A stretch of 61,942 bases of DNA, filler included, from Bacteriovoracaceae bacterium (GTDB taxonomy: Bacteria; Bdellovibrionota; Bacteriovoracia; Bacteriovoracales; Bacteriovoracaceae), in the NCBI GenBank assembly GCA_018649885.1. It is 6 parts of 6 records of this genome, joined end to end, with 100 filler letters (N's around TTAATTAATTAA, not from the genome) between each part and the next. Parts side by side here need not be neighbours in the genome. Positions count along the whole stretch, not along the records: positions 55,649 to 61,942 come from JABIHA010000151.1; 5 more parts are not named here. One strand, written 5' to 3'. Each line of letters opens with the position of its first letter. Positions within the stretch are counted from its first letter, which is position 1. The position numbers were made by a program, and so were the translations under genes. Below the pieces are notes generated by a model, which searched no databases, had not been told where the DNA came from, and saw only the letters and a program-made list of their open reading frames with translations. Positions 23,132 through 61,803 of the stretch are shown here, one piece after another.

Positions 23132-23266
23132 GGGTGAAAGTAAAACTAGCACTACAACTCCCCCACTCTCTTTACTAAAATGCCCCCTGAAATTATCGAC
23201 GGCCTCAAAAAGGCCCTCTTTTTTGGCCTAAAGGCCCTTTAAAAACCATGGAATTACTCCAAGCTA
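23132..23266 (-). mobile_element. 135-bp unit (copy 1) just downstream of the IS91-like transposase; probable oriIS end or mini-element
   Basis: Reverse complement of the TAGCTTGGAG...TTTTACTTTCACCC units at 55655, 57892 and 60356; begins 44 bp after the transposase stop. Confidence 0.8.
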
Positions 23267-27603: not shown

Positions 27604-27607
27604 ATTA

Positions 27608-28558: not shown

Positions 28559-28812
28559 TAACAAACCTGTAAATTTATAATCTCGTAAAGCACTACCGCT
28601 TCGTCGCGTACTGTCACAAAAAGTCTTCTTACGAATCGAAACCTTTACTGGCCTTCAAATTCTTCTCTAAATCCTATTTAGAGTAAATCAATACAGATAT
28701 CTACTTAAGCTTTTAAAATTCAATTAAGGAGTGTTCTGTGAAGTGTGAACAACACTTCTGTTGAGAGACTAACGAATGAATCAATTTATCATTATGAAAG
28801 AGAAACTTTGAA

Positions 28813-29624: not shown

Positions 29625-29675
29625 TTATGGACGGCCACGCAATCTACTGAGACAATCTAGGTGTAAATAAATTTT

Positions 29676-31250: not shown

Positions 31251-31285
31251 CATTTGTAATTTTTTCACCACACAAGGCCTTCCCC

Positions 31286-33076
31286 ATGGACTCAAAAATC
31301 AAGGATCAAATTCTAGCTGCCACAAACTCAAAAAGAATTGAGAGCACTGAGCTTATTCAAAAGCTATGGAATGATTATGGTGATCTATTAAGAATTTATC
31401 TAAGTGGAGGTGAGTATAATAGTGTCATCCTAAAGCACATAAAAATACCAGACAATCAAAATCACCCAAAAGGATTTTCTGGAGATATCTCTAGAAAAAG
31501 AAAGATTAACTCATATCTTGTGGAAACAAACTGGTATGAAAACTATAATCACACTAATTTTTTAGATAACCATTCAAAAACTGCAAAAAAGCTTAAAACC
31601 TTTCAAAGCGGTGGTGAGTTTTTTATCCTTCTAGAAGATCTTGATGCCTCAGGATACAGCAAACGTCTGGAAGCTCCAGAGTTTAAAGAGATAAAGCTCG
31701 TTTTATCATGGCTTGCTAGCTTTCATGCAAAGTTTATGAATATCACACAAGCTGATCTTTGGGAGACTGGAACATATTGGCACCTTGAAACAAGGCCTGA
31801 CGAGCTAGTTAAGCTTCAAGATAAAAAATTAAAAGAGTTTGCACCACTGATTGATTCAAAATTAAGTAGTGCAAAATACCAAACCCTTGTTCACGGGGAC
31901 GCAAAGCTTGCAAATTTTTGTTTTTCAGATGATTTAGAAAGTGTGGCCGCTGTTGATTTTCAATACGTTGGTAATGGCACAGGAGTGAGAGATGTAGCTT
32001 ATTTTATTGGAAGTTGCATGGATGAGGTTGAGTGCAAGAAAAATGAGAGTGAGATTTTAGATTATTACTTTAATGAGCTAAGGTGTTTTTCAGATCTTGA
32101 TGAATGCCAGCACGCTGAGCTTGAATCTGAGTGGAGAGAGTTATACCCCTATGCTTGGGCCGATTTTCACCGCTTTTTAAAAGGCTGGAGCCCAGATCAC
32201 TGGAAGATAAATAACTATAGTGAAAAATTAAAAAATCAAGTGATCTCAAAGATTGAAGATGATCTATTAAGCTCCATGAAAAGTGCTTGCATAGAAGCTG
32301 GAAAAATCATTATGAGCTATTATAAAAGTGATTTTGAGATCTCAAAAAAAGAGGGATCAACACTTTCAAGCTCAGTTGTGACCGAAGTAGATATAAAATC
32401 TCAAAAATGTATTCTAGAAAATCTAGTTCAGACAATTAATACATATGACCTAGGCGTTTTATCAGAAGAAAAAAATGATGATGGATCAAGACTAGTTAAA
32501 GATTTCTTTTTTGCAATTGACCCACTTGATGGCACCTACTTTTTTAGCAGAGATGCTCCAGGGTTCTCTGTGTCAATTGCCCTGGTGGGTAGAGAGGGAG
32601 AGGCCACTGTCGGAGTTATCTATGATCCAGTAGGTAATACTCTTGTTCATGCAATAAAAGATAGGGGCTGTTATATAAATGATAAGATTCATAAAGTGGA
32701 AGCGGGGATAGGCTCAAACAAAAAAATAAGACTGTTTGCCGATCAAAGCCAAAAGGATGCTATAAATATCAAAACCCTTGAAGACAGCTTTGAAATTGAA
32801 TATACAGGAGGCGCTGTAATCAACTCCTTAAATGTTCTAACGACTAAAAATTCAACTTATTTTAAATATCCTAAAAAAGAGAAAGGCGGATGTGCCATTT
32901 GGGATTTAGCAGCGATTGATATTATATTTAAAGAAGCAAATGCCAGCATTACAAGTTTTGATGGTGAGAAACTTAGCTTTAACTCGGATGAGTCACATTA
33001 CTTTAATAAGGAAGGGCTAATGGTCTGTCATAATGAAGAGATACTAAAAAAAATAAAAGAAATGAAGTGTGAATGA
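31286..33076 (+). CDS. Fusion of APH/choline-kinase-like phosphotransferase and inositol monophosphatase/CysQ
   Basis: N-half: [25 protein letters not shown]-half: VTEVD, SEE, IDPLDGT, WDLAA. Confidence 0.87.
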
Positions 33077-33259
33077 TTTTTTGAACAACCAAAGAAGTGT
33101 GTTGGTGAGCAGGTGAGGTGTTCGCCGATAGGAAGGGAGACGGGAAAAACGTGAGTTGGTGGACGGAGTAAAACAAAAATCAAGTCAGCATGCATTCAAA
33201 CTCCAATAAATATAAAAAAGTATCAATATTCGTTTTTTTTTCAATATAGCCTGGATCTT

Positions 33260-33499
33260 TTGAGAATCTTCTATTCAAAATTAATTTTAAACTTTGAGCT
33301 TCAAGATGAAGCTCATTTCATAAACCCTAAAAACGACGGGGAGTGGCCTACTGTAAAGGGAAGGCGGGAGAAGTCAGATAACACTGATGAGGAATGCCTT
33401 TTAAGAGAAATTTCAGAAGAATTTGGTGCTAAAATGAGGGGTCTAAGTACCTCAACCAGACCCCTTACAAGTTATCAAAAACACCAACCTGCCATTTAA
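33260..33499 (+). pseudogene. Nudix hydrolase remnant
   Basis: Nudix-box-like GRREKSDNTDEECLLREISEEFG in a short ORF lacking a convincing start or complete C-terminus. Confidence 0.55.
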
Positions 33500-33723
33500 G
33501 TAACCTTTTTTTATGAGTCAACAGTATTGGAAAATGTAGCATCAACAATAAGCTTGGGTGACATTTTTAAAGCGGAAAAAATATTTCAAGCTAAAAGAAC
33601 TTCAATAAAACCAAGGCCTTCAAATACATAACTTAGTCAGCTAAAAAGCTTGTTGAGTCAACGGGGCCAGAGAGAGGGAATACAATTATCATTTTACTGA
33701 GTCATATCGGGGACTTATTTCTG

Positions 33724-33751
33724 ATGCCCCATAATAATTGTTATAAGGCAT
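33724..33751. other. dif-like tyrosine recombinase site
   Basis: 11-6-11 layout ATGCCCCATAA-TAATTG-TTATAAGGCAT, with CATAA/TTAT inner ends. Confidence 0.5.
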
Positions 33752-33833
33752 TGAAATTATTGACTTACAATAACGGTTATTTAATTCACCTTTTCTTAAG
33801 CACCTGATCTTCCGTGAAATATTTCGTGACATT

Positions 33834-33851
33834 TGTAATATATATGTTACA
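33834..33851. promoter_or_regulatory. Palindromic operator candidate upstream of the TA pair
   Basis: TGTAATATATATGTTACA imperfect palindrome 25 bp upstream of the 33877 start. Confidence 0.45.
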
Positions 33852-33876
33852 ATAAATTTGAAGGGAATCAGGCTTT

Positions 33877-34269
33877 ATGGCAAGTAAGGATACGTTTACC
33901 GCAGAAGTTCCAAAGGAATTTGAGACGACTGATGAGTACACAAAGTGGAAAGAAGCGATTGATGGATCGCTGAAAGACTACGTTGAGGCCGCCGAGTCTA
34001 AGATAGAAAATGACGGACTTATCACCAATGCCAAAAAATTAGAAAATGGTCTGTATGAAAGAAAGTGGAAAAATGGATTAAGAGTATATTTCTCAGTGGT
34101 TATTAAAGATGAACAAAAGACACTTTTAATATTAGGCAGTGGTAAAGGAAAAGAGCAAGCAAAGGCCATTAAGCAGTGTGAAAAAATTCTTGAAGAATAT
34201 AATGTATATACTGGTGAAATAAAATTTAATGATGGAGGCAATCATGGCACTTCGAAAAAATTTGAATAA
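33877..34269 (+). CDS. RelE/HigB-like addiction-module toxin
   Basis: T.EY.KW...KL..GLYE.KW..GLRVYF......L.LG..K..Q.K.I pattern; toxin-first order. Confidence 0.75.
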   Translation: MASKDTFTAEVPKEFETTDEYTKWKEAIDGSLKDYVEAAESKIENDGLITNAKKLENGLYERKWKNGLRVYFSVVIKDEQKTLLILGSGKGKEQAKAIKQCEKILEEYNVYTGEIKFNDGGNHGTSKKFE

Positions 34270-34531
34270 AAAAGTAAAACAATCTAGGTTTGCAGATCCA
34301 AAATATATTTTGGAGGCCTTGAAAAATTTCATGAATGATGGTGAGTTTCACTCTATGACTGATCTCATTAGTGCTTATATTAAGCACTCCCCTAAATACT
34401 TAACTCAAGAAGAGTTCGCAGCTGCAATCGGTACTAATAGGCAAACCCTTCACCGAATGATGGCACATGAAAATGTCTCTTTAAATTTATTTTTTAGTGC
34501 TTTAGAGCAAATTCATGACGATGCTCAATAG
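34229..34531 (+). CDS. HTH (XRE) antitoxin
   Basis: TQEEFAAAIGTNRQTLHRM HTH; overlaps the toxin gene. Confidence 0.75.
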   Translation: MMEAIMALRKNLNKKVKQSRFADPKYILEALKNFMNDGEFHSMTDLISAYIKHSPKYLTQEEFAAAIGTNRQTLHRMMAHENVSLNLFFSALEQIHDDAQ

Positions 34532-34661
34532 AGTCTCTTCAAGGCCATTTAAAGAATAAAAACTTATTTTGTATGAGCTGAAATTGCCTACCACTCCAAA
34601 GCCGCCTTAGTATTCTATTTAGTAGACTTAGTTATAGATTGGATCAATTCCGAAACGAAGA

Positions 34662-35267
34662 TCAGGCAGCTTTCAGGATAGTATCAATATAGCCTTGGAT
34701 TTCTTGATTCCAAAATGTTTTCAAGTTTTCATCTTGAGATGTAAAGCAGGCCATCATTTTTATTATGCTTGTCTCACAAATCTGGCTTGGTCTCTGAAGA
34801 ACCAATTCTGAGATCGAAATCAATTGAACCATCATCTTTGGTTTAAACTGAATATTAACCTTCTTCCTATCATCATCTGAATTAAACGAACTAAGAATGT
34901 CTTTATTCATTAAACTATTAAATCGAGATACAAGATCAGTATTTATATCAATATGATTTATATAAACGGTGACTAACGCTCTCATAAGGGCTGCTTGCGT
35001 GACACCGGGATAATCTTCAATAAATTTATCAAGACACATAGTCAGGTTTTTAGATAAATGACATTGTACTTGAAACTTGTCACGCTTTTGATGATATCTC
35101 TCATTAAGCCATTCCATATAGGCACTCTCAAAGTCTTTTCCTCTAAGGTAGGCTCCACAATCATTGCAAACTAAAGTATTATGATTAAATTTCATACCAA
35201 GGAAATCCAGCTCAGCATCTTCTTTTGAGAAATTTTTATGATTACAATCCATGTCCAGCACCTTCAA
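34662..35267 (-). CDS. Zinc-ribbon protein; MqsA-like antitoxin candidate
   Basis: N-terminal C.H...VCNDCG zinc ribbon followed by two ribbon-helix-helix-like segments; downstream of a small gene. Confidence 0.5.
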   Translation of the reverse strand: MKVLDMDCNHKNFSKEDAELDFLGMKFNHNTLVCNDCGAYLRGKDFESAYMEWLNERYHQKRDKFQVQCHLSKNLTMCLDKFIEDYPGVTQAALMRALVTVYINHIDINTDLVSRFNSLMNKDILSSFNSDDDRKKVNIQFKPKMMVQLISISELVLQRPSQICETSIIKMMACFTSQDENLKTFWNQEIQGYIDTILKAA

Positions 35268-35301
35268 CTTACACTTAATACAATTTAAAAACTAAGATAA
35301 C

Positions 35302-35682
35302 TTATTTTACTACAGTGAGCTTCGGAGTAGATTTTTTAAAGGATTGGATCTCTACACCTCTTGGATCATCAATTTCAAAGAAAAATCCCTTCAAATATAT
35401 TTTTATACTATGACCCATTACTTCAAATTCATCTTCGATACTAAATACCCACTTAAAACCTGTTTCTGAATATTTGCCCTCGTCACTTTCTCTGGGAGAC
35501 ATTTTCAGAGGGACACTTCTTCCAACTTGCAAAGAGTTAAGATACCTTTCAAGCATCTCTTTAGATAAATTCTCTGGTCTTTTCTCCCAGTATTCAAGAT
35601 CGTTTAAGCCTGCGTATTTCAATTTTTTTAGAAAGTCTTCCTGCTTATCCTGAATGAGATTTTTTAGTTCTTCCTTGTCCAT
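35302..35682 (-). CDS. Small protein; MqsR/RelE-like toxin candidate
   Basis: C-terminal W.F.......IYLKG.F......G..IQSF pattern; upstream of the zinc-ribbon gene. Confidence 0.45.
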   Translation of the reverse strand: MDKEELKNLIQDKQEDFLKKLKYAGLNDLEYWEKRPENLSKEMLERYLNSLQVGRSVPLKMSPRESDEGKYSETGFKWVFSIEDEFEVMGHSIKIYLKGFFFEIDDPRGVEIQSFKKSTPKLTVVK

Positions 35683-35739
35683 CCCATATTCCCTTATAAT
35701 TTAACCAGCTTCTCTTTAAACCGTAAATGAGGTGGGATA

Positions 35740-35815
35740 TACCTCATCCGCTGTAGCCCTGGTAGTATATACAGCATCCGCTGTAAAGTAAAGATCTGTT
35801 ACCTTATCTGCTGTA
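35740..35815. promoter_or_regulatory. Three 16-bp operator-like repeats at 30-bp period
   Basis: TACCTCATCCGCTGTA (35740), TACAGCATCCGCTGTA (35770, palindromic arms) and TACCTTATCTGCTGTA (35800). Confidence 0.65.
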
Positions 35816-35982
35816 ATGCATGTAAAATCAATCGGTTACGATGTGGAATCTGGTGATGATACCTGAACTTTAGGTGATTTTTTTAAAAAGACCATCAAAC
35901 TTACTTTCATTAGGCTTTTTCTGGAAACACTGGAAGTATCAGGAACAACAAAATTATCCAAACGAGTAGTTAAAATGATCTT

Positions 35983-36348
35983 TTAATTATAACTTTCCAT
36001 ATTTGTACAAGATAAAGTGTAGATGTCCTTTTTAACATTTAAGATGACGGTTGCTTTATTTACTCCCTCAGAGGTTTTTTCAACCCTCTTGTGGTTTAGA
36101 GACAAAACTATTCCATATTGAAAAGGAAGAAAAAGCACTTCAGCGTGAACGTCGTCTTTATCGCCATTATAATATTCGGTAGACTCTTCTTCATAATCAT
36201 CACCCCTTGAAGCGATTAGAGAAATTTCCTCTTTTTGATTTTTTAGAAAAGAACAATCAAGGCTACCAGAAAAATCTGAATCGGCAGCATGTAAAGTAGC
36301 AACACACATCAGTGCTACTAAAACAGCATTCAAAAGTAATTTTGTCAC
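35983..36348 (-). CDS. Secreted hypothetical protein
   Basis: Signal peptide ending TLHA; Cys near each end of the mature part. Confidence 0.7.
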   Translation of the reverse strand: MTKLLLNAVLVALMCVATLHAADSDFSGSLDCSFLKNQKEEISLIASRGDDYEEESTEYYNGDKDDVHAEVLFLPFQYGIVLSLNHKRVEKTSEGVNKATVILNVKKDIYTLSCTNMESYN

Positions 36349-36506
36349 TGATCCCCTCGTCTTATTAAGATATTTTTAATACAACAAGTGTATCCACACT
36401 CTAAAACTAGGTAACTCCCCTGTTTGAAAAGATCAATATGGGTGGTTTCTTTGCCAAAGAAAATTCAAAAAAGAAATGGGCTTGCCAATGAAAAATTGCC
36501 AATATT

Positions 36507-36539
36507 AAATCCGTAAGTAACTTTGTTACTTACGGATTT
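36507..36539 (-). terminator. Perfect 15-bp inverted repeat; probable terminator of the regulator-peptide operon
   Basis: AAATCCGTAAGTAAC-ttt-GTTACTTACGGATTT, 65 bp downstream of the 36605 stop. Confidence 0.55.
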
Positions 36540-36604
36540 CTTTAATAGAAATGTTTTTATATGAAAAGAAGTAAAATTAAGAATTTGTACAATTTAGGCA
36601 TTTT

Positions 36605-36874
36605 TTAGCCACCACCACCAGTGCCAGTCGAATCACCAGATCGCATCATTGTCTTACCAGTAAACCTAAATGCATTAATGTCTTCACTTTGGATTACAGA
36701 TCCATTATTTAAGATGACTTTTGATGGAAACTTATCACTGTAGTTATTCTTGATCGTTTCTTTAATGTCTCTATCCGTATAGAACTGATGGCCTTTAGTT
36801 GCCACCCAGCTAAGTTTGCTAGTTGCAAAAGAAATATTGGATGCAAATATAAGAGTTAGTATTAAAAATTTCAC
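36605..36874 (-). CDS. Small secreted protein ending SGDSTGTGGGG
   Basis: Signal peptide (MKFLILTLIFASNISFA); start overlaps the regulator stop codon. Confidence 0.8.
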   Translation of the reverse strand: MKFLILTLIFASNISFATSKLSWVATKGHQFYTDRDIKETIKNNYSDKFPSKVILNNGSVIQSEDINAFRFTGKTMMRSGDSTGTGGGG

Positions 36875-37665
36875 TGCTGAACCTCCACTTCCTTGGTGGG
36901 TTTTGTATCAATAGTATCAGCTACCATGCCGATGAAAAAAGTAGATTGATCTGAAGGATCTTTAGTTTTAAATTTTCCAGACCCAAATTCATCTTTTATT
37001 TTGTTAAAGGCATCCTGAAGAGTTTCTCTAACAAACTTCATGGCCTCTTCCCTATCACCTACTTCTGTTTGAAAACTACACCAGTTTTCTCCAAGACCAA
37101 ATAGCTCTTCCCTATAGCCTTTGTCTAAACATACTTGAAACATTTTCTTTATTGTCGCTTGAGAATATGTTCTTGGCTGGGTCCATGGTTTAATATAGCC
37201 GGCATCATCTTCTGCAAGAATGCCTTGCTGAATAAGTCTATTGAGATTTCTATCACCCTGAGCACCTAGCTCGCGGACAACTTCCTCACGAGATGTACCC
37301 TTTTGTGTGTAAGCAAGAAGTAATGTGAAACAAAACTCTTCTTTGGTTAACAGTTCATCCACTTCAGGTGAAAGAGGTTTATAATTTTTTAAATGCTTCA
37401 AATTTTCCTGAAAGCTACCTTGAAGTTTAGGATTAACCTCTCCCAATACTTCTATTAATCGGTGCTGATTACCAGTACCAATTACAATGTCAGTTAAAAG
37501 CTCATAGCTTGGATTAGTGTTTAAGTTCTCAATCCTATTAATGGATGATTGCTTAATCCCAATCAGCTGAGCGATTCGAGATGAACTCTTAATGTGTGGG
37601 TGTTTTGCCTTAAAACCATCAATCAGTTTTTTGGCAATAACACATGTACTAGAAGGCATTTCCAC
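36871..37665 (-). CDS. HTH transcriptional regulator resembling the TIGR02147/DUF4423 family
   Basis: N-terminal XRE-like HTH (SSRIAQLIGIKQSSINRIEN), central winged-helix-like segment and C-terminal alpha/beta domain. The family name is from resemblance only. Confidence 0.6.
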   Translation of the reverse strand: MEMPSSTCVIAKKLIDGFKAKHPHIKSSSRIAQLIGIKQSSINRIENLNTNPSYELLTDIVIGTGNQHRLIEVLGEVNPKLQGSFQENLKHLKNYKPLSPEVDELLTKEEFCFTLLLAYTQKGTSREEVVRELGAQGDRNLNRLIQQGILAEDDAGYIKPWTQPRTYSQATIKKMFQVCLDKGYREELFGLGENWCSFQTEVGDREEAMKFVRETLQDAFNKIKDEFGSGKFKTKDPSDQSTFFIGMVADTIDTKPTKEVEVQQ

Positions 37666-37901
37666 TAAAAACTCCTACCCATGATGAATTATTATTCTTG
37701 GTGGGTAACATAAGTGTTGATAACTGGCTCGTCAAGTAGTCGTGGGTAATTACCTTGTTTCACTTGTGAAATAGCTATTGATTTAGTTGTTTAGGGCCGG
37801 TTTTATGGCTGAAATTAATTTAATAGCGACCTTGAAAACAAAACTAATGGGTAGTGAGTCATAAGTATTAAAAGCTGAAGGTCATAAAAAAGAAGGTAGT
37901 A

Positions 37902-38159
37902 ATGAAGAAATACACGAAGATAGTGCGATGCGCGATGGGCGTTTTCACTTTATCTTTCACTTTGGCCAGTGGACCTCTTCCTGAGCGTGGAAATGACTCA
38001 GGCGGCGGAAAAGTGTGTACCAATTGGTCCAGTGAACTGACAGCCGCTAAGTCTAGAAAAGGTGATGACGGTAGCGGTGGCGGATTAAAGCTCGAAGATA
38101 CATTTGATCAACTGGTGGTGGGCCCGGGCCTAAAAGCACAGGGGATGTATAAATTTTAA
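37902..38159 (+). CDS. Small secreted protein with two GGG motifs
   Basis: Signal-like N-terminus; RGNDSGGG and KGDDGSGGG. Confidence 0.7.
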   Translation: MKKYTKIVRCAMGVFTLSFTLASGPLPERGNDSGGGKVCTNWSSELTAAKSRKGDDGSGGGLKLEDTFDQLVVGPGLKAQGMYKF

Positions 38160-38197
38160 TAACTTTATAAATAACAACAACCAACAGGAGAAAAGAG

Positions 38198-38395
38198 ATG
38201 AAAGTTTTAATTGTAGTTTTAAGTTTAATGATGGCAGTAGGCGCTTTTGCAAAAGGCGACAGAGATGGATCAATGACCAAAAAGGGTGATAGAGACAGCT
38301 CAATAAAAAAAAGAGGAAATGGAAATGATGACCTTGAAGGACCAAAAGAAATTAGAGGCGGTGGAGTGAAGACAAAAGGAACTGGGGACGTATAA
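38198..38395 (+). CDS. Small secreted repeat peptide precursor
   Basis: AGGAG RBS; signal peptide ending AFA; KGDRDGSMTK-KGDRDSSIK-KRGNGNDD repeats; RGGG. Confidence 0.75.
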   Translation: MKVLIVVLSLMMAVGAFAKGDRDGSMTKKGDRDSSIKKRGNGNDDLEGPKEIRGGGVKTKGTGDV

Positions 38396-38431
38396 GGGTC
38401 TTTTTTTGGGGGTTCATTAAGGGGGAAAGAG

Positions 38432-38848
38432 ATGAAAAAAATACTATTAATAATTATGACTCTAGCGCTTGTAAGTTGCGGAAGTGAAGATAACGGCGTA
38501 GCCGCAGGTGACGGATCAGGCGGTGGGAAGAAGAGTATTAATGGTGAGAGTGCAGATTCTTACTATGATAGCTTCATGAGCGTTGAGGGTAATATGAAAG
38601 TTCTCACAGACAATTTATCAATCGCTTTCACAGGTCACCAATTGATTCTAAAAAAAGATATGGGCGAGTACGAAATTGGTGATCCTCAAGGCTTTTTAGT
38701 CTACGAGGGTAAATACCAAGTTTCAGGGCTAAATCTCAACCTTACGGGCTTCGGAGTCGGCTCAGGGATTCAGTCAAATGGAAAAAAGTGCATCGAGGTC
38801 ATTCCAGACGGTAAAACGCCGATGGAAAGAGCACTTTTTTGCTTATAA
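38432..38848 (+). CDS. Lipoprotein with GDGSGGG motif
   Basis: Lipobox LVSC followed by AAGDGSGGG. Confidence 0.8.
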   Translation: MKKILLIIMTLALVSCGSEDNGVAAGDGSGGGKKSINGESADSYYDSFMSVEGNMKVLTDNLSIAFTGHQLILKKDMGEYEIGDPQGFLVYEGKYQVSGLNLNLTGFGVGSGIQSNGKKCIEVIPDGKTPMERALFCL

Positions 38849-38887
38849 AATAAGAATTTAAATTTAGCACAAAATACGGGGTTTATT

Positions 38888-40663
38888 ATGGGTAAGTTAA
38901 TTTCTTACGGGGTAATGCTTTGCCTAATTTTTTCATGCAGTTTTAAAAAAAAGAATGCTGATAGTGGTGCTTTGGGTCTTTCCAAAAAAGGTGGGGTTTC
39001 AAAGCACCTTGATCCAAAACAAGACTCTGATGGCGATATGATCACAGATCTTGAAGAAATTAGTCGAGGCCTTGATCCACTTGTTTCTAATATCCCGAAG
39101 ATTCGAGTAGAAATGATCTCTCAGGGATCAATCGACTTATACTCAAAAAGCTTGGATCATTTTGTAAAAAAATACTCGGTCGGCATTAGTTTATCAGAAC
39201 TACCTTTTCAGTCACATATAAGACAAATTGTGACAAGAAAAGTATCAAAATTTGTCTTGAGCTCTGATCCAAATGATTTAATTTGGGTGGGAGGAATCTA
39301 TGGATACCTAAAAGTTTCTGATTTATCACAAAATTCTCTAAATCTAAGTAGAATGAATGATTTCTTATTTTTAAATGACATTGAATTTGAAAACACTTCT
39401 GAGATACTACTAGATTTATCATTTTCTCTAAGTCCAGAAAGTGGACAGGACCTATTTGAGAAAATCACTGATATTGACTATACTTTTTTCACTGAGAGTC
39501 CATTAAAGCCGATCGCTAATTCTAAATTTCCATTCTATGTGAGTACAGATGCAGTAGAAACGAAAATAATAGAAAGTATTCCACCAAAGACTTTCGTTGA
39601 TAGTTTTCTCGTGGGAGATGATCTTATATTCAAGATGAATGATTTCAACATCGTGTATTTTGAAGACCTAGGAAAAGAAGATATTAAATTTAGCACCTTA
39701 CTTGAAAGCATTCGAAAGAAAACGGTTGAAGTAATAAAAATAGCTCCTGGCAATGTGGATCACAAATTCATTGCTATTGGAGGGAGTGGATCAATATCTG
39801 TTGAAAAATTAATTGAGAGTATTTCAAAAAAAGGCTTTCAATTTAAAGATAGAGAAATTTTCTCGATTGATGAGCTTGAAAATAGCTCGGATCTAAGAAT
39901 CACAAAAGATAGAATCCAGAAAATGCTTGATCATAGTCACTGGTACGCTCTAAATAATAGGCACCAACTCTTATTTAGAGAATCAAAGCTCACTGCAGGC
40001 GATATCATTGTTGTGGCGTATATGAGTGGAAGAGAGCTTTTAGATTCATCAAAGCGTTCAAAATTTAAATCATTTGATACTATTGGTTTGCCTTCTCAGA
40101 CTCACCGAGTTTCTCAAGTGCTTCCAAACTCAAAAATTAAAATAAACCTTCTTGGAAAAGTAAGACACTTTGACAAAAAAGTATTCGGGAGCGTCCCCCA
40201 GTACAAATGCAGCTTTAGCTACGTGCAATTAAAAGAAAACAAAAGAGAGACTGATTTTTCAAAAGGACTTGAAAGTGAGGACATAAAGCTCATTGGCATT
40301 ACAATTGGAAAAGATGAAATCAACTTACATGAATTTTCAAAAAAATATGCAACGATCGTTGATTACAATGATAGCACAAAGGTATTATCACTAGAGTTTG
40401 ATTTATCAAAAATTGATTTTCCATACTCGGTAGATAGCCCACTTTTTTTAAAAACCTATGGAACAAATTCTCAGATTCAGCTTGGGGCCTTAAATGTTTC
40501 AGGGGATTCAACGTGTCCAGACATTCTAAGAGGATATAAAAGCGGACACTATGATAGTACTTCTTGGGGGCATAAATACCTAAAACCAAAAAAGAAGACT
40601 CTCAAAAACTTTCTCTATTTTTCTGCTGATATCGTAATGGAGAATTCACAATTTTTTAAATAA
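38888..40663 (+). CDS. Lipoprotein with Ca-binding DSDGD motif
   Basis: Lipobox IFSC; DSDGDMITDLEE..G.DP.V..IP; directly upstream of the pilin-like gene. Confidence 0.65.
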   Translation: MGKLISYGVMLCLIFSCSFKKKNADSGALGLSKKGGVSKHLDPKQDSDGDMITDLEEISRGLDPLVSNIPKIRVEMISQGSIDLYSKSLDHFVKKYSVGISLSELPFQSHIRQIVTRKVSKFVLSSDPNDLIWVGGIYGYLKVSDLSQNSLNLSRMNDFLFLNDIEFENTSEILLDLSFSLSPESGQDLFEKITDIDYTFFTESPLKPIANSKFPFYVSTDAVETKIIESIPPKTFVDSFLVGDDLIFKMNDFNIVYFEDLGKEDIKFSTLLESIRKKTVEVIKIAPGNVDHKFIAIGGSGSISVEKLIESISKKGFQFKDREIFSIDELENSSDLRITKDRIQKMLDHSHWYALNNRHQLLFRESKLTAGDIIVVAYMSGRELLDSSKRSKFKSFDTIGLPSQTHRVSQVLPNSKIKINLLGKVRHFDKKVFGSVPQYKCSFSYVQLKENKRETDFSKGLESEDIKLIGITIGKDEINLHEFSKKYATIVDYNDSTKVLSLEFDLSKIDFPYSVDSPLFLKTYGTNSQIQLGALNVSGDSTCPDILRGYKSGHYDSTSWGHKYLKPKKKTLKNFLYFSADIVMENSQFFK

Positions 40664-40686
40664 ATATAAATACTAAGGAGAAATGA

Positions 40687-40941
40687 ATGAAATATCTACT
40701 GATATTACTTCCAAGTATTTGCTTTGGTGCAAGATCACTTGAAAGCATGGCAAAAAGCGCTGAAGGATCTCTTACAAGACTTGGCTCTGGAGTCGTAGTG
40801 ATTGGTCTCATTTGGGCCGGATACTTGTATGTTAAGGGCTCGCAGGAAGGGCGCGAAAAGTTAGGAGGCGCAGTTGCTGCTGCAATTTTAATTTTCGGAG
40901 CAAGCGGAATAATGGCCCTTTTAAAAAAGATTACAGGCTAG
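40687..40941 (+). CDS. VirB2/TrbC-like conjugative pilin
   Basis: 84 aa with a signal peptide and two hydrophobic helices ending LIFGA..I; followed by VirB3/VirB4-like genes. Confidence 0.75.
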   Translation: MKYLLILLPSICFGARSLESMAKSAEGSLTRLGSGVVVIGLIWAGYLYVKGSQEGREKLGGAVAAAILIFGASGIMALLKKITG

Positions 40942-40945
40942 TCTT

Positions 40946-41203
40946 ATGAATAGACGCTACCCACAATACTTAAAATTGGGCCCAAAAATACTGGGACTTG
41001 GAATATCAGAATTTTTTGTCCTGGGATTAATTATTCTAGTGTGTGGCCCAATACTAAATCAGTCTTTTATGTCTATCGCTGTGAGTGCCATATACATCAT
41101 ATTTATCAAGACCTATAGGCTGCTTCTTCCCCCCCACTACCTTTGGTTTCGCTTAAGAAAGAAGCGAATCATCTATCTAAGGCGGGCAGTAAGTGGAAAG
41201 TAA
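40946..41203 (+). CDS. VirB3/TraL-like membrane protein
   Basis: YP.YL....KILGL...E followed by two TM helices; located after the pilin. Confidence 0.65.
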   Translation: MNRRYPQYLKLGPKILGLGISEFFVLGLIILVCGPILNQSFMSIAVSAIYIIFIKTYRLLLPPHYLWFRLRKKRIIYLRRAVSGK

Positions 41204-54557: not shown

Positions 54558-55548
54558 TTATAGTGTCTCTAATTGTCTGTTTACGGCTTCAACAAGTTCA
54601 GAGATTTTAAATGGAAGCCCCTGTACTTTATTGTATCCAATGGCACCAATGTTAAATTCAGCATTGATGATATTTCTCATTTGGCCTAAGTTGAGCTCAC
54701 ACACTAAAACCTTTTTGAAATTGCCCAAAATTTCACCAATATTTTTTGGCATAGGATTAATGTATTTTAGATGGCATAGAGAAACTTTTTTTCCTTGCTC
54801 AAGTAGCTCTTTAACGGCCATGTGAGTGGCACCATATGTACCTCCCCAAGAGAGAACTAAAACGTCTCCACTATCTTCACCTTCAAGTGTTTGAAGTGGA
54901 ATATTATCCTCCACTCTTTTAACTTTTTCAGCTCTGATATGGCACATATCTGAATGGTTGTCTGGGTCGTAGCTGACATTGCCAGTTTTCACATCTTTTT
55001 CAAGGCCTCCGAGTCTGTGCTCGAAGCCTTCCATTCCTGGAACGGCCCAGTTTCTTACATGAGTCTTGTCTTCCCGCTTATAGGCGAGAAAACCCTCGCT
55101 TGAAGTTTTTGAAGGATCAATCATCCTTGAGTTAATCTTATTAAACCTCTTGTCGAGGTCTGGAATCTTCCAAGGCTCCGCTCCGTTGGCTATATAGCCA
55201 TCAGTTAATAAAACAACAGGGGTCATATGCTCAAGAGCAAGTCTGCATGCCTCAAAGGCCATTTCAAAGCAATCATTAGGTCTTGAAGCGGCTACAACTA
55301 TCATTGGGCATTCGCCATTTCTGCCGTACATAACTTGCATTAAATCTGATTGTTCAGTTTTAGTAGGAAGCCCAGTGGAGGGTCCACCTCTTTGAACGTT
55401 AACCACAACGATGGGAAGCTCGTACATAGTAGCAAGTCCCATGGCCTCACCTTTAAGAGCAATTCCAGGTCCTGAACTAGTGGTAAGGGCCAAAGCTCCA
55501 CCAAAAGATGCACCGATGGCAGAACAAATTCCCGCTATCTCATCTTCG
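54558..55548 (-). CDS. korA: 2-oxoacid:ferredoxin oxidoreductase alpha subunit, 5'-truncated by the contig end
   Basis: EDEIAGIC.AIGASFGG, TSSGPG, QRGGPSTGLPTKTEQSD, ELNLGQ. Confidence 0.93.
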
Positions 55549-55654: not shown

Positions 55655-55789
55655 TAGCTTGGAGTAATTCCATGGTTTTTAAAGGGCCTTTAGGCCAAAA
55701 AAGAGGGCCTTTTTGAGGCCGTCGATAATTTCAGGGGGCATTTTAGTAAAGAGAGTGGGGGAGTTGTAGTGCTAGTTTTACTTTCACCC
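55655..55789 (+). mobile_element. 135-bp unit (copy 2)
   Basis: TAGCTTGGAG...TTTCACCC; no differences seen from the other copies. Confidence 0.85.
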
Positions 55790-55883
55790 ATGATTTTATT
55801 TTTGTTCTTGCAGGGAACCTTTCACCTCTTCCAGCACTAAAGAATATGGGAGTAAATATCTCCAAAGTATCAGGGAGAGAATT

Positions 55884-56609
55884 GTGAAAGTCTTGGCGCC
55901 TCTACTCTTTATATTGTGTTTTTCCTTTTTGGGATGTGTCCCAGAGCAACCTATTGCTGAAAGTAGCACTTCCCCTTTAACTGAGTTTTCCCATGATGGA
56001 CTTGAGGGAGCTTGTACAGGCTGTCACTTAGAAAAAAGACCCAGCGAAGAGCATAATCGAAATATGCAGTGTGACCGTTGCCACGTGACTCGTCAGTGGG
56101 ATAAAAACATCGACTTTGACCACACTCCCAAACCAAAAGACTGTAAGCTATGCCACCTTGAACAACGTCCAGAGACAAGCTTTGGAAATAACACCCTCGA
56201 GGTATCTGTTCACGGTCAAGGATTTAACTGCAAGAAGTGTCATAGTGTAGAGAACTGGAAAGAAGGCATCTCCTATTCCCACGACCCCAATACTGGCAAA
56301 AAGTGTTATGAGTGTCATAGCGAAAAAAGGCCTGCGGTCTCTAAGTTTCCGAAACCCAAACATCAAGTTAAGGTAGGACACTATGAGACAAAAGACTGTT
56401 CTAGCTGCCACAAAACTGAAACAAATAAAAACGAGTGGTACTTCGATCATTCCGATTCAAAAGATCGGGATATTAAATTTTGTCTTCCTTGTCATAAAAC
56501 CGCAGGTAAGAGAAAACACTTTTACGCAATCCCCTTTGGTGGCTTTCGTGGAGATGGTAACTGCTATAAATGCCACAATAAAAAAAGACAAAGCTGGAAA
56601 GCGAAGTAG
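55884..56609 (+). CDS. Octaheme c-type cytochrome lipoprotein
   Basis: Lipobox FLGC; eight CxxCH motifs (CTGCH, CDRCH, CKLCH, CKKCH, CYECH, CSSCH, CLPCH, CYKCH). Confidence 0.9.
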   Translation: MKVLAPLLFILCFSFLGCVPEQPIAESSTSPLTEFSHDGLEGACTGCHLEKRPSEEHNRNMQCDRCHVTRQWDKNIDFDHTPKPKDCKLCHLEQRPETSFGNNTLEVSVHGQGFNCKKCHSVENWKEGISYSHDPNTGKKCYECHSEKRPAVSKFPKPKHQVKVGHYETKDCSSCHKTETNKNEWYFDHSDSKDRDIKFCLPCHKTAGKRKHFYAIPFGGFRGDGNCYKCHNKKRQSWKAK

Positions 56610-56730
56610 ATCATTCTCCCCTTACTCTGCCTTTGAATAACTAGATGTCTAATTGCTAAACACTCTCTTATTAGTATAGGCAAATAATGTTAAATGATTC
56701 CTTTAAACCTCTGAAATTATGAAGTAATTC

Positions 56731-56746
56731 TGGCAACGAGGTTGCA
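56731..56746 (+). promoter_or_regulatory. Sigma54-like promoter
   Basis: TGGCAA-CGAGG-TTGCA upstream of 56793. A second, GGGCAT-CATTA-TTGCT (57499-57514), precedes 57562. Confidence 0.5.
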
Positions 56747-56792
56747 TATTTAGCTACATAATTTAAAACGTGGTGATATTGAGAGGTTTTTA

Positions 56793-57386
56793 ATGAAGAA
56801 ATTATTCGTAATTTTTACTTTGGTTTTACCACTTGGCCTATTGGCCTCTCCTGGAGAGCACTCAGATGGCACATTCCACTTTTCACAATTTCATATCGAT
56901 TCAAAGGCCAAAATCATGGTTTTTCAATCTCCAGGCCAAGAGAGTGGGAAACGTATAGTAATCAAATGTCCCAAGATTGGAGACCGTACACGAATTACAG
57001 TATACGAAGGTGAAAAGAAAATAGTATCACCTATTATTTTGTCAAAAGCTGCTTGTAATGCCCAGTTAAGCTTTTTAAAAACAAAGATTCTAATGGATAC
57101 AATTGCTGATACTCCGCAATGCTCTGGACATAGTGCCAACGTAAAATTTTGTGGTTCACCTAAAGGCCTTGATCCCTACTCAGTGACATTAGACTCTGAA
57201 GGCCATAATTTTATATCTTTTAATCATTCAAACGCAAATAAATACCATCCTAAAGAATTATTCATGGACCGAATCAAGGCCGATACAAATGCTATCAAAG
57301 ATAGACTTGATGACATTGGTCCGATTTGTATGCCGGGAATTATATCTAACCGAGAGGGATGTAGAGGTGGAGTCAGCACCGAGTAA
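56793..57386 (+). CDS. Secreted hypothetical protein
   Basis: GAGG RBS, signal peptide, six Cys. Confidence 0.75.
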   Translation: MKKLFVIFTLVLPLGLLASPGEHSDGTFHFSQFHIDSKAKIMVFQSPGQESGKRIVIKCPKIGDRTRITVYEGEKKIVSPIILSKAACNAQLSFLKTKILMDTIADTPQCSGHSANVKFCGSPKGLDPYSVTLDSEGHNFISFNHSNANKYHPKELFMDRIKADTNAIKDRLDDIGPICMPGIISNREGCRGGVSTE

Positions 57387-57561
57387 CTCCCTATCTAACC
57401 CTAAAATAAAAATATTTAATCAATTTAATATTTAGATACGCTTGTTAATAAGATAGTCAAAACTAGGTGTTTCCTTCACTGTTATTTGGAAAATTATTGG
57501 CATCATTATTGCTCTCTAGTTAGGTAACTTACTAATTAAAATTATTTCAGAGGATTTTCAA

Positions 57562-57894
57562 ATGAATAAATTTTGTTTTATTTTTCTAATATTCAGCACA
57601 TCTGCTTTTGCTCAAGTTGATATTGACTTTAGAGTAGTTGGAAGTAGCTATACGTTAGAATTTAACAATGGTCATGTTTGTAAGGTACAGCCTTCTTTTT
57701 CTGAGGCACCTGCTCTTGGCTACGGAGCCGATATCTCAGTTGCTAAAGAAAATGCCATCCAAAATTGTATATCGCAAACAGGTAAGCACAGAATGTTTTG
57801 CGAAGATACAAGTTGTGAACGAATAGCATTTAATAATGGTAATCCGATCATATCAGTATCTAATAGAGGTGCAGGAATTGGCGTTTACTTTTAG
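57562..57894 (+). CDS. Secreted Cys-containing protein whose stop codon is the first TAG of the 135-bp unit
   Basis: Signal peptide ending AFA; C.......G.G.....A...A...C...C...C pattern. Confidence 0.75.
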   Translation: MNKFCFIFLIFSTSAFAQVDIDFRVVGSSYTLEFNNGHVCKVQPSFSEAPALGYGADISVAKENAIQNCISQTGKHRMFCEDTSCERIAFNNGNPIISVSNRGAGIGVYF

Positions 57895-58026
57895 CTTGGA
57901 GTAATTCCATGGTTTTTAAAGGGCCTTTAGGCCAAAAAAGAGGGCCTTTTTGAGGCCGTCGATAATTTCAGGGGGCATTTTAGTAAAGAGAGTGGGGGAG
58001 TTGTAGTGCTAGTTTTACTTTCACCC
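57892..58026 (+). mobile_element. 135-bp unit (copy 3)
   Basis: Matches the other copies. Confidence 0.85.
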
Positions 58027-58244
58027 CAAATTACTTGGGTCGGGACAACTCCTACAGGGGGGGAAAACTTCAATTAACAACCATGCGCTTTTAGATGTGT
58101 TTGGATGTATAGCTAGACAGAAAGGGGCCTCGGAAAAGGGGCCATTTAGAGTAGAAACGAATTTTATTTACTTGAGTGAAGTACTTGAAAATAGGGGTAG
58201 AAATTTCTACGCTTGGAGTTCAAGTAAATGTGGAGTAAAATAGA

Positions 58245-59456
58245 GTGATAAAAAGGGTTTCTATGGTTCACTTTGTTTTACTTTCCTTCATTTCAATATT
58301 TTCGACTGCAGAGGGTTTTGCGGAGTCAGCTTTATTTAAAAAAAAGTGTAAGGCAAAAATTAGTAAATATAAAAGCTTGAGTAAGGCGTGTTCTTCAGGG
58401 GAATATGATGGTCAAAAAATCTATAAGTGCAAAAAAAAGTGTAAAAAGAGAAAGGGTTTCAAATGCAAAGAGTGGGAATGGGATTCTAAGCAATTGAGGG
58501 TTTGTAACTCAGATGGAGAGAAAAAAGGATATTACATCGGGACATGTGCAGGAAAAAATCTCAATGCCAGTAGCTGGAAGAAGGCCTGCGCCCAAAAGAA
58601 CGCTAAAGGACAAACTGTCGTTTATTGTAAAAAGGGAAAAGAGAAGAAACGACAAACCTGCTCTTCAACGACAAATAACGATAGTAAAAAAAATGAGACC
58701 AGGGTTTTTATCGAAAAATGTGGAGGGAGTCAGGCCAAAAAGAAAAATGGTAAACCGATCAAAACCAATCTCTCCAAGGCCTGCAAGCAGAACAATTTAA
58801 AGAACAAAGTCTTGGTTCGCTGCAACAATACATGTATGAAAAGAAGTGGACTTAAATGCGTCAAATGGACCTGGAAAGAAAAGAAGAGGGCCATATGTGG
58901 AGCTAACAAAAAGGTCTCCAACATGAAAACATGTAATGAAACACAAGCGGCAGAGCTGGCCCGTGCGAGGACAGATGCAATTAAGGACATAAGTAATGTA
59001 ATCGTCTCGATGGAATCTTTTATAAAGAATCCACAAAACTACTATTCAAAGAATAAGGGGGAATCCTCATTTTCTAAAAAGCAGAAAAGCACTGCCTTGG
59101 AATATATGAAAAAGGCCAAGAAAACTGCGGGAAAAATTCGAAGTTCAATTAAAACAAAGACCACCAAGTTGATATGCCAAGGCAATAAGAGCAGTGATAA
59201 TTCATGTAGCTCAGGCTCAAATGCTCACGCTCTGCGAATTATAAAGAGAAGAATTTGGTTTTGTAGCAATTGGCTAGGTTTTTCAGACTATCGAAAAGCA
59301 GCTGTGTTTATTCATGAGTACAGTCATCATCACATGACAAATGATATCACCTACGATCGTAGCAAGCTTAAAAATATTAAATGGCACAAAAATGCGGAAA
59401 CCTATGAAATGTGGGCGGAAGACAACAAAATTTGCATTCCCGGTTATGATTGCTAG
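58245..59456 (+). CDS. Secreted Lys/Cys-rich protein with C-terminal M35-like zinc metallopeptidase
   Basis: Repeated SKAC/KKAC...C units; C-terminal IWFC, IHEYSH, TND..Y and NAETY. Confidence 0.78.
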   Translation: MIKRVSMVHFVLLSFISIFSTAEGFAESALFKKKCKAKISKYKSLSKACSSGEYDGQKIYKCKKKCKKRKGFKCKEWEWDSKQLRVCNSDGEKKGYYIGTCAGKNLNASSWKKACAQKNAKGQTVVYCKKGKEKKRQTCSSTTNNDSKKNETRVFIEKCGGSQAKKKNGKPIKTNLSKACKQNNLKNKVLVRCNNTCMKRSGLKCVKWTWKEKKRAICGANKKVSNMKTCNETQAAELARARTDAIKDISNVIVSMESFIKNPQNYYSKNKGESSFSKKQKSTALEYMKKAKKTAGKIRSSIKTKTTKLICQGNKSSDNSCSSGSNAHALRIIKRRIWFCSNWLGFSDYRKAAVFIHEYSHHHMTNDITYDRSKLKNIKWHKNAETYEMWAEDNKICIPGYDC

Positions 59457-59531
59457 GTATGTGTTAACAGTGCCAAGGGAAGCACGCACACAATCGCAAA
59501 TGCTCTCCCCTAGTATATATATAATAAAAAA

Positions 59532-60374
59532 TTATCTAATATTTCTTGCGACTGCCATTTTTCCTTCCTGAAAGGCTTGAAGAATTCCTGTTACCAATTC
59601 CTTTAAACTCTTTAACTCATCATTAGACTTTTGCAATTTAAACATAGTTTTTTGATCACTATCTGTTTTACTGGTAGGAGCTATAAATCTGGCACTCACT
59701 TTATTTATAACAGACTTAGCAATGGCATCTGCTTCTTCATAAGATCTTACTGGAACATCTTCGATTGTCAGAAAAACGCCATTATCAGAAGTAAATTCAA
59801 ATTTCGCTATGTCCATTGAGGTTTTATTATCTAATGAAAATTCAATTGATGCCGTTATTACTCCAGATGGAAGTTCGTCACCAACTCTAATTTGAAATGT
59901 TTGTCCGTGACCAGATCCTGCGGAAACAAATCCAAAGACTTCATCTTCACGGAGAATAATAGTCGAACACTTTTCAGATCCTGATGTATCATCAAAGATC
60001 ATCCATTCTTCTTTTTCAAAAGTTGTGCCTTTTAAATACCTATCTTCTCCATTAAGTTCAAATTTCATTGGTTGATTCCAAACTTCAGCCGAAAAATGCA
60101 TGGATCCTGGGTTTGTATCTTTGCAAGCGCGAACTGGTGTGCCATCTGGAAGAAAGCCAGCGGCCTTATTTTCTTTGTCGTAGAAGTAAGTTGGTCCTGA
60201 GTTAGAAAAATTGGCTCCAACTTCGTCCGCCACGAGGGCGGCCATAAGGCTTCCAACAACTACAATTTCTTTTGGTTTCTTGGCCAAGGCAGTTGGGATA
60301 CCCATACCCTTAATTTTTAGATCACTCGTTTCAATATATTGAGCAGCAGCTCCTCTAGCTTGGAGTAATTCCAT
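59532..60374 (-). CDS. Hypothetical protein whose N-terminus is read from within the 135-bp unit; probably truncated or interrupted
   Basis: The first codons (MELLQA) lie inside 60356-60490. Confidence 0.6.
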   Translation of the reverse strand: MELLQARGAAAQYIETSDLKIKGMGIPTALAKKPKEIVVVGSLMAALVADEVGANFSNSGPTYFYDKENKAAGFLPDGTPVRACKDTNPGSMHFSAEVWNQPMKFELNGEDRYLKGTTFEKEEWMIFDDTSGSEKCSTIILREDEVFGFVSAGSGHGQTFQIRVGDELPSGVITASIEFSLDNKTSMDIAKFEFTSDNGVFLTIEDVPVRSYEEADAIAKSVINKVSARFIAPTSKTDSDQKTMFKLQKSNDELKSLKELVTGILQAFQEGKMAVARNIR

Positions 60375-60490
60375 GGTTTTTAAAGGGCCTTTAGGCCAAA
60401 AAAGAGGGCCTTTTTGAGGCCGTCGATAATTTCAGGGGGCATTTTAGTAAAGAGAGTGGGGGAGTTGTAGTGCTAGTTTTACTTTCACCC
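60356..60490 (+). mobile_element. 135-bp unit (copy 4)
   Basis: Matches the other copies. Confidence 0.85.
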
Positions 60491-60584
60491 TGCTGGAAAG
60501 CGCGCCCCTCATGGACTTTTTAGTGAAAGAGTTCGCTTTGATAAAAATCTATTTATAAAAAGGATTTAATATCCTAATTTAAGT

Positions 60585-61025
60585 TTAGAGATGAAAGTCT
60601 TCAAGGTCTTTGATTTTAAGGGCGTAAGTATACTCAGCTCCTTCAGTTACTTCTCCATCTTCATCATAGTAATCGTCTGAGATATCGGCTGTGTTGTAGT
60701 CTCCAACTAATATAGGAGAGACATTTTCCCCTACTGGAATTTCATAATATAGAAGTTGGTCTTCGTCGTAATGAACCTCTACAACGCCAACATATTTAGT
60801 AGTGGGTTTTTTACCAGTAATTTTTTTGAATGCTTTTTTTCCTCTGCGATATCTTGTCACACCTATTGTGTGTTCCATCTCACCTTCAGAGTATCTCTTG
60901 TTTGAGTCAATTCTCAGGCATTGTTTTGCATCAATAGAGTTTTTCACATTACATGTCGTTTTAATTTGTTGATCAGCATAGATGTTGGATGACGCTATGC
61001 ATATAAGTACCAGTAGGTATTTCAC
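60585..61025 (-). CDS. Secreted hypothetical protein
   Basis: GGGAG RBS and signal peptide. Confidence 0.72.
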   Translation of the reverse strand: MKYLLVLICIASSNIYADQQIKTTCNVKNSIDAKQCLRIDSNKRYSEGEMEHTIGVTRYRRGKKAFKKITGKKPTTKYVGVVEVHYDEDQLLYYEIPVGENVSPILVGDYNTADISDDYYDEDGEVTEGAEYTYALKIKDLEDFHL

Positions 61026-61205
61026 GTTTTTCTCCCATTCTCAAAGGCCGTTAGGTCCTCTAGTTATTGCCCTCGCTAGATGCTTTGTTAATGACTAAGA
61101 TGAAATATGTAAAAATAACATTCATTGCTATTAAATTATGGAGCAGATTAAGGAATTCTTAACCCATTCGTGGTGTTCCACCACTCAGGTCCTTTTAGGA
61201 GAATA

Positions 61206-61237
61206 AAAAAAAAGGGGGTCTAGAAAAGACCCCCCTT
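61206..61237 (-). terminator. Intrinsic terminator
   Basis: GGGGGTC-N7-GACCCCC hairpin with a U8 tract on the minus strand, after 61260. Confidence 0.8.
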
Positions 61238-61259
61238 CATATTATTTTTTTTTATTAAA

Positions 61260-61736
61260 CTATTCTTCTGAAGCAGTACCTTTTTTACATTCTTTAACGG
61301 CCTCTTTCATATCTTTTTTAAGCTCTTTTTTAACTGATTTCTTTCCTTTCCAACAGGCTTTAGAAGCATCTGTTCCTTTGCCCTCTTCATCTTTGAGTGC
61401 ATTACAAGTACCTTTAGTGGCTACCTTGTAAGCCTTCCAATCACTTTTATATGATTTTTTTGCTTCTTTAATACAATCAGCTTTTGGAAGTACACAATTT
61501 TTGATTTTGTCTTTTACACAAGATCTTTTTATTTTTTGGCAAGCTTTAATCATTTTCTTTTGTTCTTTTAAATATCCAGATGCAGAAAGTCCTGAATCTA
61601 GGCCAGCAACGCCAGAATCAAAACACTCATTAAAACCTGCATTACAGGCCCCATCAAAACACTTCACAGCAAATGCGCTACTCATGAAAGACATAGCAAA
61701 AACGACAACTAGTAACTTCATATTTTCTCCTCGCAA
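61260..61736 (-). CDS. Secreted Lys/Cys-rich helical protein
   Basis: Signal peptide from MKLLVVVF...AFA; periodic Cys residues. Confidence 0.75.
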   Translation of the reverse strand: MRGENMKLLVVVFAMSFMSSAFAVKCFDGACNAGFNECFDSGVAGLDSGLSASGYLKEQKKMIKACQKIKRSCVKDKIKNCVLPKADCIKEAKKSYKSDWKAYKVATKGTCNALKDEEGKGTDASKACWKGKKSVKKELKKDMKEAVKECKKGTASEE

Positions 61737-61803
61737 AATATTAATATAGCTACTATTTTATCGGAAGCATATTTGATTTATTTAGAAATATATACGAATA
61801 AAT

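Follow-up and report, generated by a model that had tools for sequence, protein, structure and literature searches.

The stretch of DNA analyzed in this study (the window, 61,942 nucleotides) comes from a metagenome-assembled genome (MAG) of a Bacteriovoracaceae bacterium (GCA_018649885.1; 5.45 Mb, 151 contigs, contamination 3.89%) and consists of six MAG contigs spliced with spacers. Our subject is a 135-bp unit that stands three times in an array on contig C149 and once behind a transposase gene on contig C138. Judged from its sequence, this unit is the detached, non-autonomous 3′ (oriIS) end of a HUH element of the ISCR (insertion sequence common region)/IS91 type. Identical units lie in co-oriented arrays, they separate contiguous blocks of DNA that are cut in mid-gene, and their two junctions are asymmetric; these features were established directly. 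The explanation that we favor, and regard as probable, is that the miniature oriIS end inserted at new places, that rolling-circle copying read through it to give circles of a block plus a unit, that these circles entered existing units, and that conjugative transfer moved them. The labels C, L129–L142, and X1, X3, X5, and X11 denote MAG contigs, metagenome contigs, and sequencing runs, respectively.

The first-pass annotation of the window had reported three identical, co-oriented units at spacings of 2237 and 2464 bp and a fourth identical copy 44 bp past the stop codon of a 477-amino-acid IS91-family transposase. All four were seen (Table 1), and the 3′ flanks (ATGA, CAAA, TGCT, and CGAA), the lack of a terminal inverted repeat in the unit, and the lack of target duplication in the flanks were the same on recheck. 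Its statement that the fourth copy is the only other one holds within the window; genome-wide there are seven identical copies on four contigs (three on C149, two on C23, and one each on C12 and C138), and nhmmer gave 31 matches to the unit family in the MAG. A degenerate-pattern search of metagenome contigs yielded 14 loci; with the copies of L129–L142 included, the identical unit has nine distinct left flanks and 11 distinct right flanks. Units do cluster into arrays, and all 15 neighboring pairs are co-oriented (hand count); many diverged copies stand singly in large contigs. The left boundary is fixed across copies that are 70–100% identical.

The terminus of the unit, GTGCTAGTTTTACTTTCACCC, resembles the ISCR1 oriIS 22-mer given in PMC13023784, with GTG...ACCC in common, and we therefore identify the unit as an oriIS end. 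The proposal of a non-autonomous oriIS unit whose co-oriented copies bound blocks is thus supported. The ISCR1 22-mer was also present in L060, 232 bp past the transposase. A structured RNA or attC fold in the unit was no better than in shuffled sequences (z of −1.3 and −0.9), the two weak, sub-threshold matches of the Rfam scan lay away from the unit and neither was relevant, and a search of the unit for an outward sigma-70 promoter found none. The unit gave only short, weak matches in 3 of 200 family genomes and no match in viral contigs. The DNA occurs in marine metagenomes, and X1 may be the source sample of the MAG; sequencing-run shares below 0.2 were left unused, and patchy coverage in X5 and X11 was not read as absence of a block. 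A second mini-element, V (645 bp), has two stacked ori-like ends, flanks a 6-kb block (L132:12053–12697 and 18612–19256), and likewise begins Y/TAG (Y, pyrimidine).

The transposase gene on C138 is intact. The two Pfam models of the IS91 family, PF04986 and PF14319, which cover Zn-finger and Y2_Tnp domains, matched its product above their cut-offs, and H181, H183, and Y298 were invariant in 18 of 18 aligned homologs. The NCBIfam IS91 model scored 116.8 bits against a cut-off of 125, and the best NCBIfam match, ISCR_clade_Ia (NF052416), scored 296 bits, under its cut-off of 925. The right flank of the transposase-linked unit matches a segment of C12 that falls within a DUF218 gene, whole on that contig. 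Named close homologs came from Halobacteriovorax, Bacteriovoracaceae, and Oligoflexia records; besides this gene, the MAG has another full transposase, at 91%, together with two remnants. Three transposase copies have a left end in common, at about 77 bp upstream of the gene's start codon, and it is without a YTAG motif; no terIS, which in IS91, IS801, and IS1294 lies upstream of the transposase and has a palindrome, was defined. Upstream of the gene, positions 24,816–24,933 are 82% like C145:1069–1188, which by eye looks like a degenerate ori end, and the transposase may itself be a block.

The two junctions of the unit follow different rules. On the left, the unit begins at TAG, and the base before it is a pyrimidine in 23 of 24 distinct flanks, where the background is 49.5%; the 24 include two matches found by regular expression only and two homologous flanks linked to transposases. 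Native homologs of the left flanks had T at the boundary in six of six cases, with AG next in two. On the right, no motif is common to the 11 distinct flanks. Native homologs exist for eight of these; not one is colinear with the left flank, and before the five natives that are unambiguous stand C, A, G, A, and A (YT in none of five). An empty site for joined left and right flanks was found for 0 of 18 joins in the MAG or L129–L142, and the plain MITE (miniature inverted-repeat transposable element), for which the first-pass annotation had named such sites as the mark, failed this test. Simple insertion alone is insufficient to give this pattern. Two readings of the junctions were rejected. 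Primase primers start with AG, and an origin of the left junction in primase or Okazaki synthesis fit six of six natives, but two self-target junctions in G061, a Bdellovibrionales genome assembled from long reads, continue with C and not T. A supposed empty site at unit copy 3, with an in-frame join of 19 and 274 amino acids, was discarded because the C41 native has other upstream DNA.

Many of the blocks are contiguous pieces 71–93% like large contigs of the same MAG: C12 resembles C125, C88 and L133 resemble C92, the korA piece resembles C133, block 3 resembles C41, and parts of C23 resemble C135 and C57. The likeness begins or ends at the unit. Genes cut at junctions include korA, HipA, a DUF218 gene, a kinase fragment, an integrase-like open reading frame (ORF), and the last ORF of block 1; the cargo contains an aminotransferase, transporters, flagellin, and two tRNAs, with housekeeping genes included. 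As their sequences indicate, the blocks are arbitrary chromosome pieces, cut inside genes. The integron-like array of effector genes that had been proposed does not agree with blocks that cut genes and carry housekeeping genes and tRNAs, and the statement that the genes are mostly secreted fits C149 (six of seven ORFs) better than the blocks overall (26 of 44). Signal-peptide-like proteins are nonetheless enriched in blocks, at 26/44 vs. a background of 1095/3657 (30%), in counts that come from a crude heuristic applied to genes that are not independent.

The array contig C149 begins 6 bp upstream of unit copy 1, at an assembly branch common to C23. Both junctions of block 1 were bridged by one contig in X1 and in X3, and the left junction only in X5. 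The octaheme cytochrome noted earlier has eight CxxCH motifs by our count; the M35-like protease could not be upheld, since the protein has a single HEXXH motif and the Pfam, NCBIfam, and PDB sequence searches were all empty. A minus-strand ORF in block 2 is open up to the unit and possibly cut by it. Block 3 is followed by an insertion sequence (IS) end common to five further contigs. Most genes of blocks 1 and 2 are without a close resident counterpart in the MAG.

The order of blocks was compared between assemblies, as the first-pass annotation had suggested, and neighbors differed. Unit copy 2 is followed by block 2 on C149 but by another block of 1.15 kb, block X, in L137, so that block 1 precedes block 2 in the MAG only and block X in L137 only. 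Block X was seen ahead of block 1 (C149, L142) and on either side of the C23 block, before it in one join and after it in another. Two left flanks have two right flanks each, and one right flank has two left. One right end occurs with two left ends, that of C12 as a whole and that at base 562 of C12, where the C138 unit runs into the sequence at 100% identity although C12 itself continues upstream. On L133 the end of a C92-like segment (native 23617) and the start of that segment (near 17270) meet at a unit. This contig, a circle or a tandem, closes over 121 bp. The unit contig had a depth of 110 in X1 and 106 in X3 vs. 3–9 for blocks, values that are not a copy number, and block 1 was deeper than block 2 in X1, X3, and X5.

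Some further observations concern individual blocks. Block X (L137:212–1282) has several different neighbors and holds a truncated ORF, 33% identical to C64, with tyrosine-integrase-like motifs but no Pfam or NCBIfam match. The korA copy begins, 5′-truncated, directly after the C12 unit and converges with the MAG's only close korB. The korA gene of C133 ends there as well, its last ~99 bases being identical. In part of the population, recombination may have placed the array in the chromosome.

At least one array is located on a conjugative element. The transposase adjoins a conjugative backbone (Table 1), and C138 overlaps C144, which brings VirB4, TrbI, a coupling protein, and five more unit-family matches; the link between the two is non-unique in the assembly graph, with C32 as a second path. 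The placement of an array follows from a metagenome contig (L131/L132) that ties the succession unit, 10 kb, unit, 2 kb, V, 6 kb, V to C144. Upstream of parA, positions 25,920–26,199 carry degenerate 8-bp tandem repeats that are parS-like by position. At 28,811–29,597, 22-bp direct and inverted repeats lie upstream of a gene for a 524-amino-acid protein without family match, and the two are a candidate plasmid origin and Rep; C84 holds a paralogous pair of parA and the 524-amino-acid gene. The backbone also contains a phosphotransferase–inositol-monophosphatase fusion gene (31,286–33,076).

Table 1 Features of the window (positions along the whole stretch)
Feature	Position	Strand	Basis or remark
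Right flank of transposase unit	23025..23131	-	100% identical to C12:562-668
Unit copy in native place, 44 bp past transposase stop	23132..23266	-	
Intact ISCR-type HUH transposase, 477 aa: Zn finger, H181-x-H183, Y298	23311..24744	-	Pfam and alignment
Left end common to three transposase copies (C138, C63, C18)	24745..24821	-	Contig comparison
Conjugative backbone adjoining transposase: ParA, 22-bp iteron-like repeats, VirB2 pilin, TraL	26206..41203		
3′ part of korA copy	54558..55548	-	92-93% like C133 korA
Unit copy 1, mini-oriIS, TAGC...ACCC	55655..55789	+	Repeat comparison
Block 1, 2.1 kb: octaheme cytochrome, 197-aa secreted-type protein, 110-aa cut ORF	55790..57891		
Multiheme cytochrome c, 8 CxxCH, signal-peptide-like start	55884..56609	+	
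ORF cut by unit copy 2, unit TAG as stop	57562..57894	+	110 aa vs. 240-aa native homolog
Unit copy 2	57892..58026	+	
Block 2, 2.3 kb: 403-aa Cys-rich HEXXH protein and minus-strand ORF	58027..60355		
Unit copy 3	60356..60490	+	
Block 3	60491..61800		First 0.7 kb 82% like C41, beginning exactly at unit end

Related transposase loci in other genomes were collected by an alignment-based scan, a scan with a single protein query having found nothing. Of the 80 such loci, 16 had extra ori ends close to the transposase. In G061 there are at least 40 extra ori ends (40 of 212 candidates were scored); 20 regions of it yielded 55 ori-ending copies, and arrays lie at 319–407 kb and 935–975 kb on one contig. 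The same left ends are found repeatedly, and two clusters carry copies, 99.8% identical, of a 5162-bp module that ends at ori. After 16 copies had been dropped (<93% identity or duplicate flank), CT stood at 22 of 39 left junctions in this genome, against an expectation of 0.17, and the element itself is without C at the eight C/T breakpoints. For full ISCR2 copies, 16 of the 19 loci showed one fixed left end; T stood two positions ahead of that end in five of five distinct flanks, a regularity noticed post hoc. Further ori-end arrays were seen in L109:12517–20771 and L084:11647–21458, and L109 contains two copies with a common left end 98 bp past the stop. In L079:2315–2472, 79-bp repeats ending in an ISCR ori stand head to tail, as an integrated minicircle would give.

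The process that we think probable has four steps, in which an ISCR-type HUH transposase would work in trans on a 134- to 135-bp miniature of its own oriIS end. First, the miniature would be born by termination at an internal YT/AG site 44 bp past the transposase stop, and its left end joins targets after pyrimidine-T, a rule that was observed at the junctions and behind which we infer the chemistry. Second, rolling-circle copying from the CACCC end would sometimes run through the unit into upstream DNA and stop at a variable, motif-less point, giving a block-plus-unit circle; L133 and the nested C12 block fit this step. Third, circles would enter an existing unit, either through homologous recombination between the 135 identical bases or through transposase strand transfer; the products, co-oriented unit–block–unit arrays, were observed. 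Fourth, the conjugative element would bring sister-lineage chromosome pieces into the genome, as the 71–93% identity to resident sequences suggests.

Several results weigh against this explanation. Neither the simple insertion of the first step nor a unit-only circle was seen, and blocks 1 and 2 have little native counterpart. C149 has no physical link to the transposase; it and C138 are different contigs, so the linkage of array and transposase asserted in the first-pass annotation is not established. Joins in this organism all come from short-read assemblies whose contigs break at the unit, and the block order and the L133 junction could include misjoins. Measured by local skew, the top strand of the unit is the G-rich one in 12 of 15 copies, and measured by contig skew, in 10 of 15; part of the co-orientation may be replication bias. 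One G061 cluster has 15 forward and seven reverse copies (another has seven and none). The G061 junctions are not independent, 13 C/T cases amounting to eight breakpoints, and in other taxa the CT rule was followed by only 3 of 20 extra copies (hand count). A general CT rule for plasmid ISCR2 truncations was tried and rejected; three of seven end at an IS6-type end, and CT occurs in one of the four others. Finally, most genomic IS801 fragments are said to have arisen by reorganization and not by one-ended transposition (PMC3189936).

Several alternatives were weighed. One is that the unit is a dedicated two-ended HUH site, with a motif-free ori end and a YT/AG left end, at which the transposase both excises and integrates block-plus-unit circles. 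We consider this unlikely; if it were true, the conjugative element would keep a growing, reorderable library of sister-species DNA, and ISCR-type elements generally would pick targets at the left end, the reverse of IS91. It is quite unlikely, in our estimate, that the units and junctions are real while the array order, the alternative neighbors, and the L133 circle reflect collapsed-repeat misjoins or co-binned contigs of sister species. In X1 and X3 the unit had about 13–20 times the depth of the blocks, contigs break at it, the two successors of block 1 were each found in a single assembly, and several blocks are about 80–85% like resident contigs, all of which would suit such errors. Yet block X stands before block 1 in two assemblies, the IS ends of array contigs are 99–100% identical to those on large contigs, the contamination of the MAG is 3.89%, and the long-read assembly of G061 carries such arrays on one contig.

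We give little credence to a coupled capture, in which a foreign single strand would be spliced between the displaced old unit and its new copy in one reaction with no prior insertion in the donor. This would likewise yield unit–block–unit products, the motif being on the left and the right end free, and would account for the missing simple insertions (0/18), but it needs extra events for the right end shared by C12 and C12:562 and for the self-joined L133. We likewise give little credence to a plain MITE-like single insertion with flanks later scrambled by homologous recombination and with clustering in neutral regions: the 31 family matches, many of them single in large contigs, the strand bias that follows GC skew, and the argument that IS801 fragments serve mainly as recombination sites (PMC3189936) speak for it, but insertion after YT predicts YT before the natives of right flanks, where it was found in none of the five unambiguous cases (one 100% identical), and no native remainder of a left flank recurs as a right flank (0/6, by eye).

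Elsewhere in the genome, segments of C34/C50/C117, C13/C109, and C33/C70 are duplicated at 88–93% identity with no unit detected there, possibly from a strain mixture in the bin. A repeat family of ~930 bp (75–86% identity) occurs at C3:37411–38348 and on about 16 further contigs. Positions 20,890–21,156 and 22,144–22,924, at a contig end, contain 76- to 78-bp repeats together with a duplication of 340 bp and a microsatellite of 7-bp period.

Returning to the process of miniature insertion, read-through circles, and conjugative transfer, we compared the locus with known systems. Integrons likewise line up co-oriented blocks in tandem, with a repeated site between them and an order that apparently can change, but here genes are cut by the blocks, both strands of a block carry genes, and the sites are identical transposon ends; no integron integrase IntI with attI was found among the scanned proteins, the integrase-like ORF of block X being truncated cargo. 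MITEs differ in that they make simple insertions with colinear flanks or empty sites, of which none was found here (0/18). Helitrons are HUH rolling-circle elements that make no target duplication, capture gene fragments, and have non-autonomous derivatives; the present element is bacterial and without a helicase domain, and the likeness is one of analogy.

The IS91 family, including ISCR, shares the lack of target duplication (PMC13181058) and of terminal inverted repeats. Miniatures of IS801 (229, 360, and 679 nucleotides) are mobile right-end fragments with a defined internal left end, and in IS801 and IS91 joining of ori to upstream sites gives circles or deletions; array building is not among the features of the miniatures described in the available parts of these sources (PMC3189936, PMC6354349). 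IS91, IS801, and IS1294 need a tetranucleotide beside oriIS (PMC13181058), and IS91 and IS801 need it at termination sites too, whereas none was present at the 11 right flanks here, and the sequence bias lies at the left junction, the ori side being motif-less.

The closest relatives are the ISCR elements. The HUH transposase is about 36–37% identical to those of ISCR1 and ISCR2/ISVsa3; oriIS lies downstream of the gene with variable DNA beyond (PMC6218425), here with a sharp end; cargo is found between two copies (PMC6713155); and the model for ISCR1 is a circle followed by recombination into a matching site (PMC13023784). The differences are that the repeat, an end of 135 bp, holds no gene and has a single fixed left boundary, that ori lies 179 bp past the stop vs. 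about 232–235, that the cargo is probably chromosome of a sister lineage, among which no resistance gene was seen, that there is no class 1 integron 3′ conserved segment, and that the transposase is below the NCBIfam cut-off for ISCR clade Ia. In literature searches outside subscription papers and supplements, we found neither the junction rule nor arrays of non-autonomous oriIS ends described. As of 2018, experimental evidence of transposition was said to be lacking for every ISCR (PMC6218425), and a 2026 paper counts only four active IS91-family members, none of them an ISCR (PMC13181058). Many resistance genes are flanked by ISCR elements. With an intact transposase, a minimal 135-bp substrate, and the asymmetry of the junctions, the ISCR mechanism becomes testable in a marine element, and a route is suggested by which predatory Bdellovibrionota could swap kilobase pieces of chromosome among sister lineages. 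We conclude that the arrays vary known ISCR and IS801 behavior, with unusually clear joining rules, and that the locus is a clean natural case defining both ends of an ISCR substrate.

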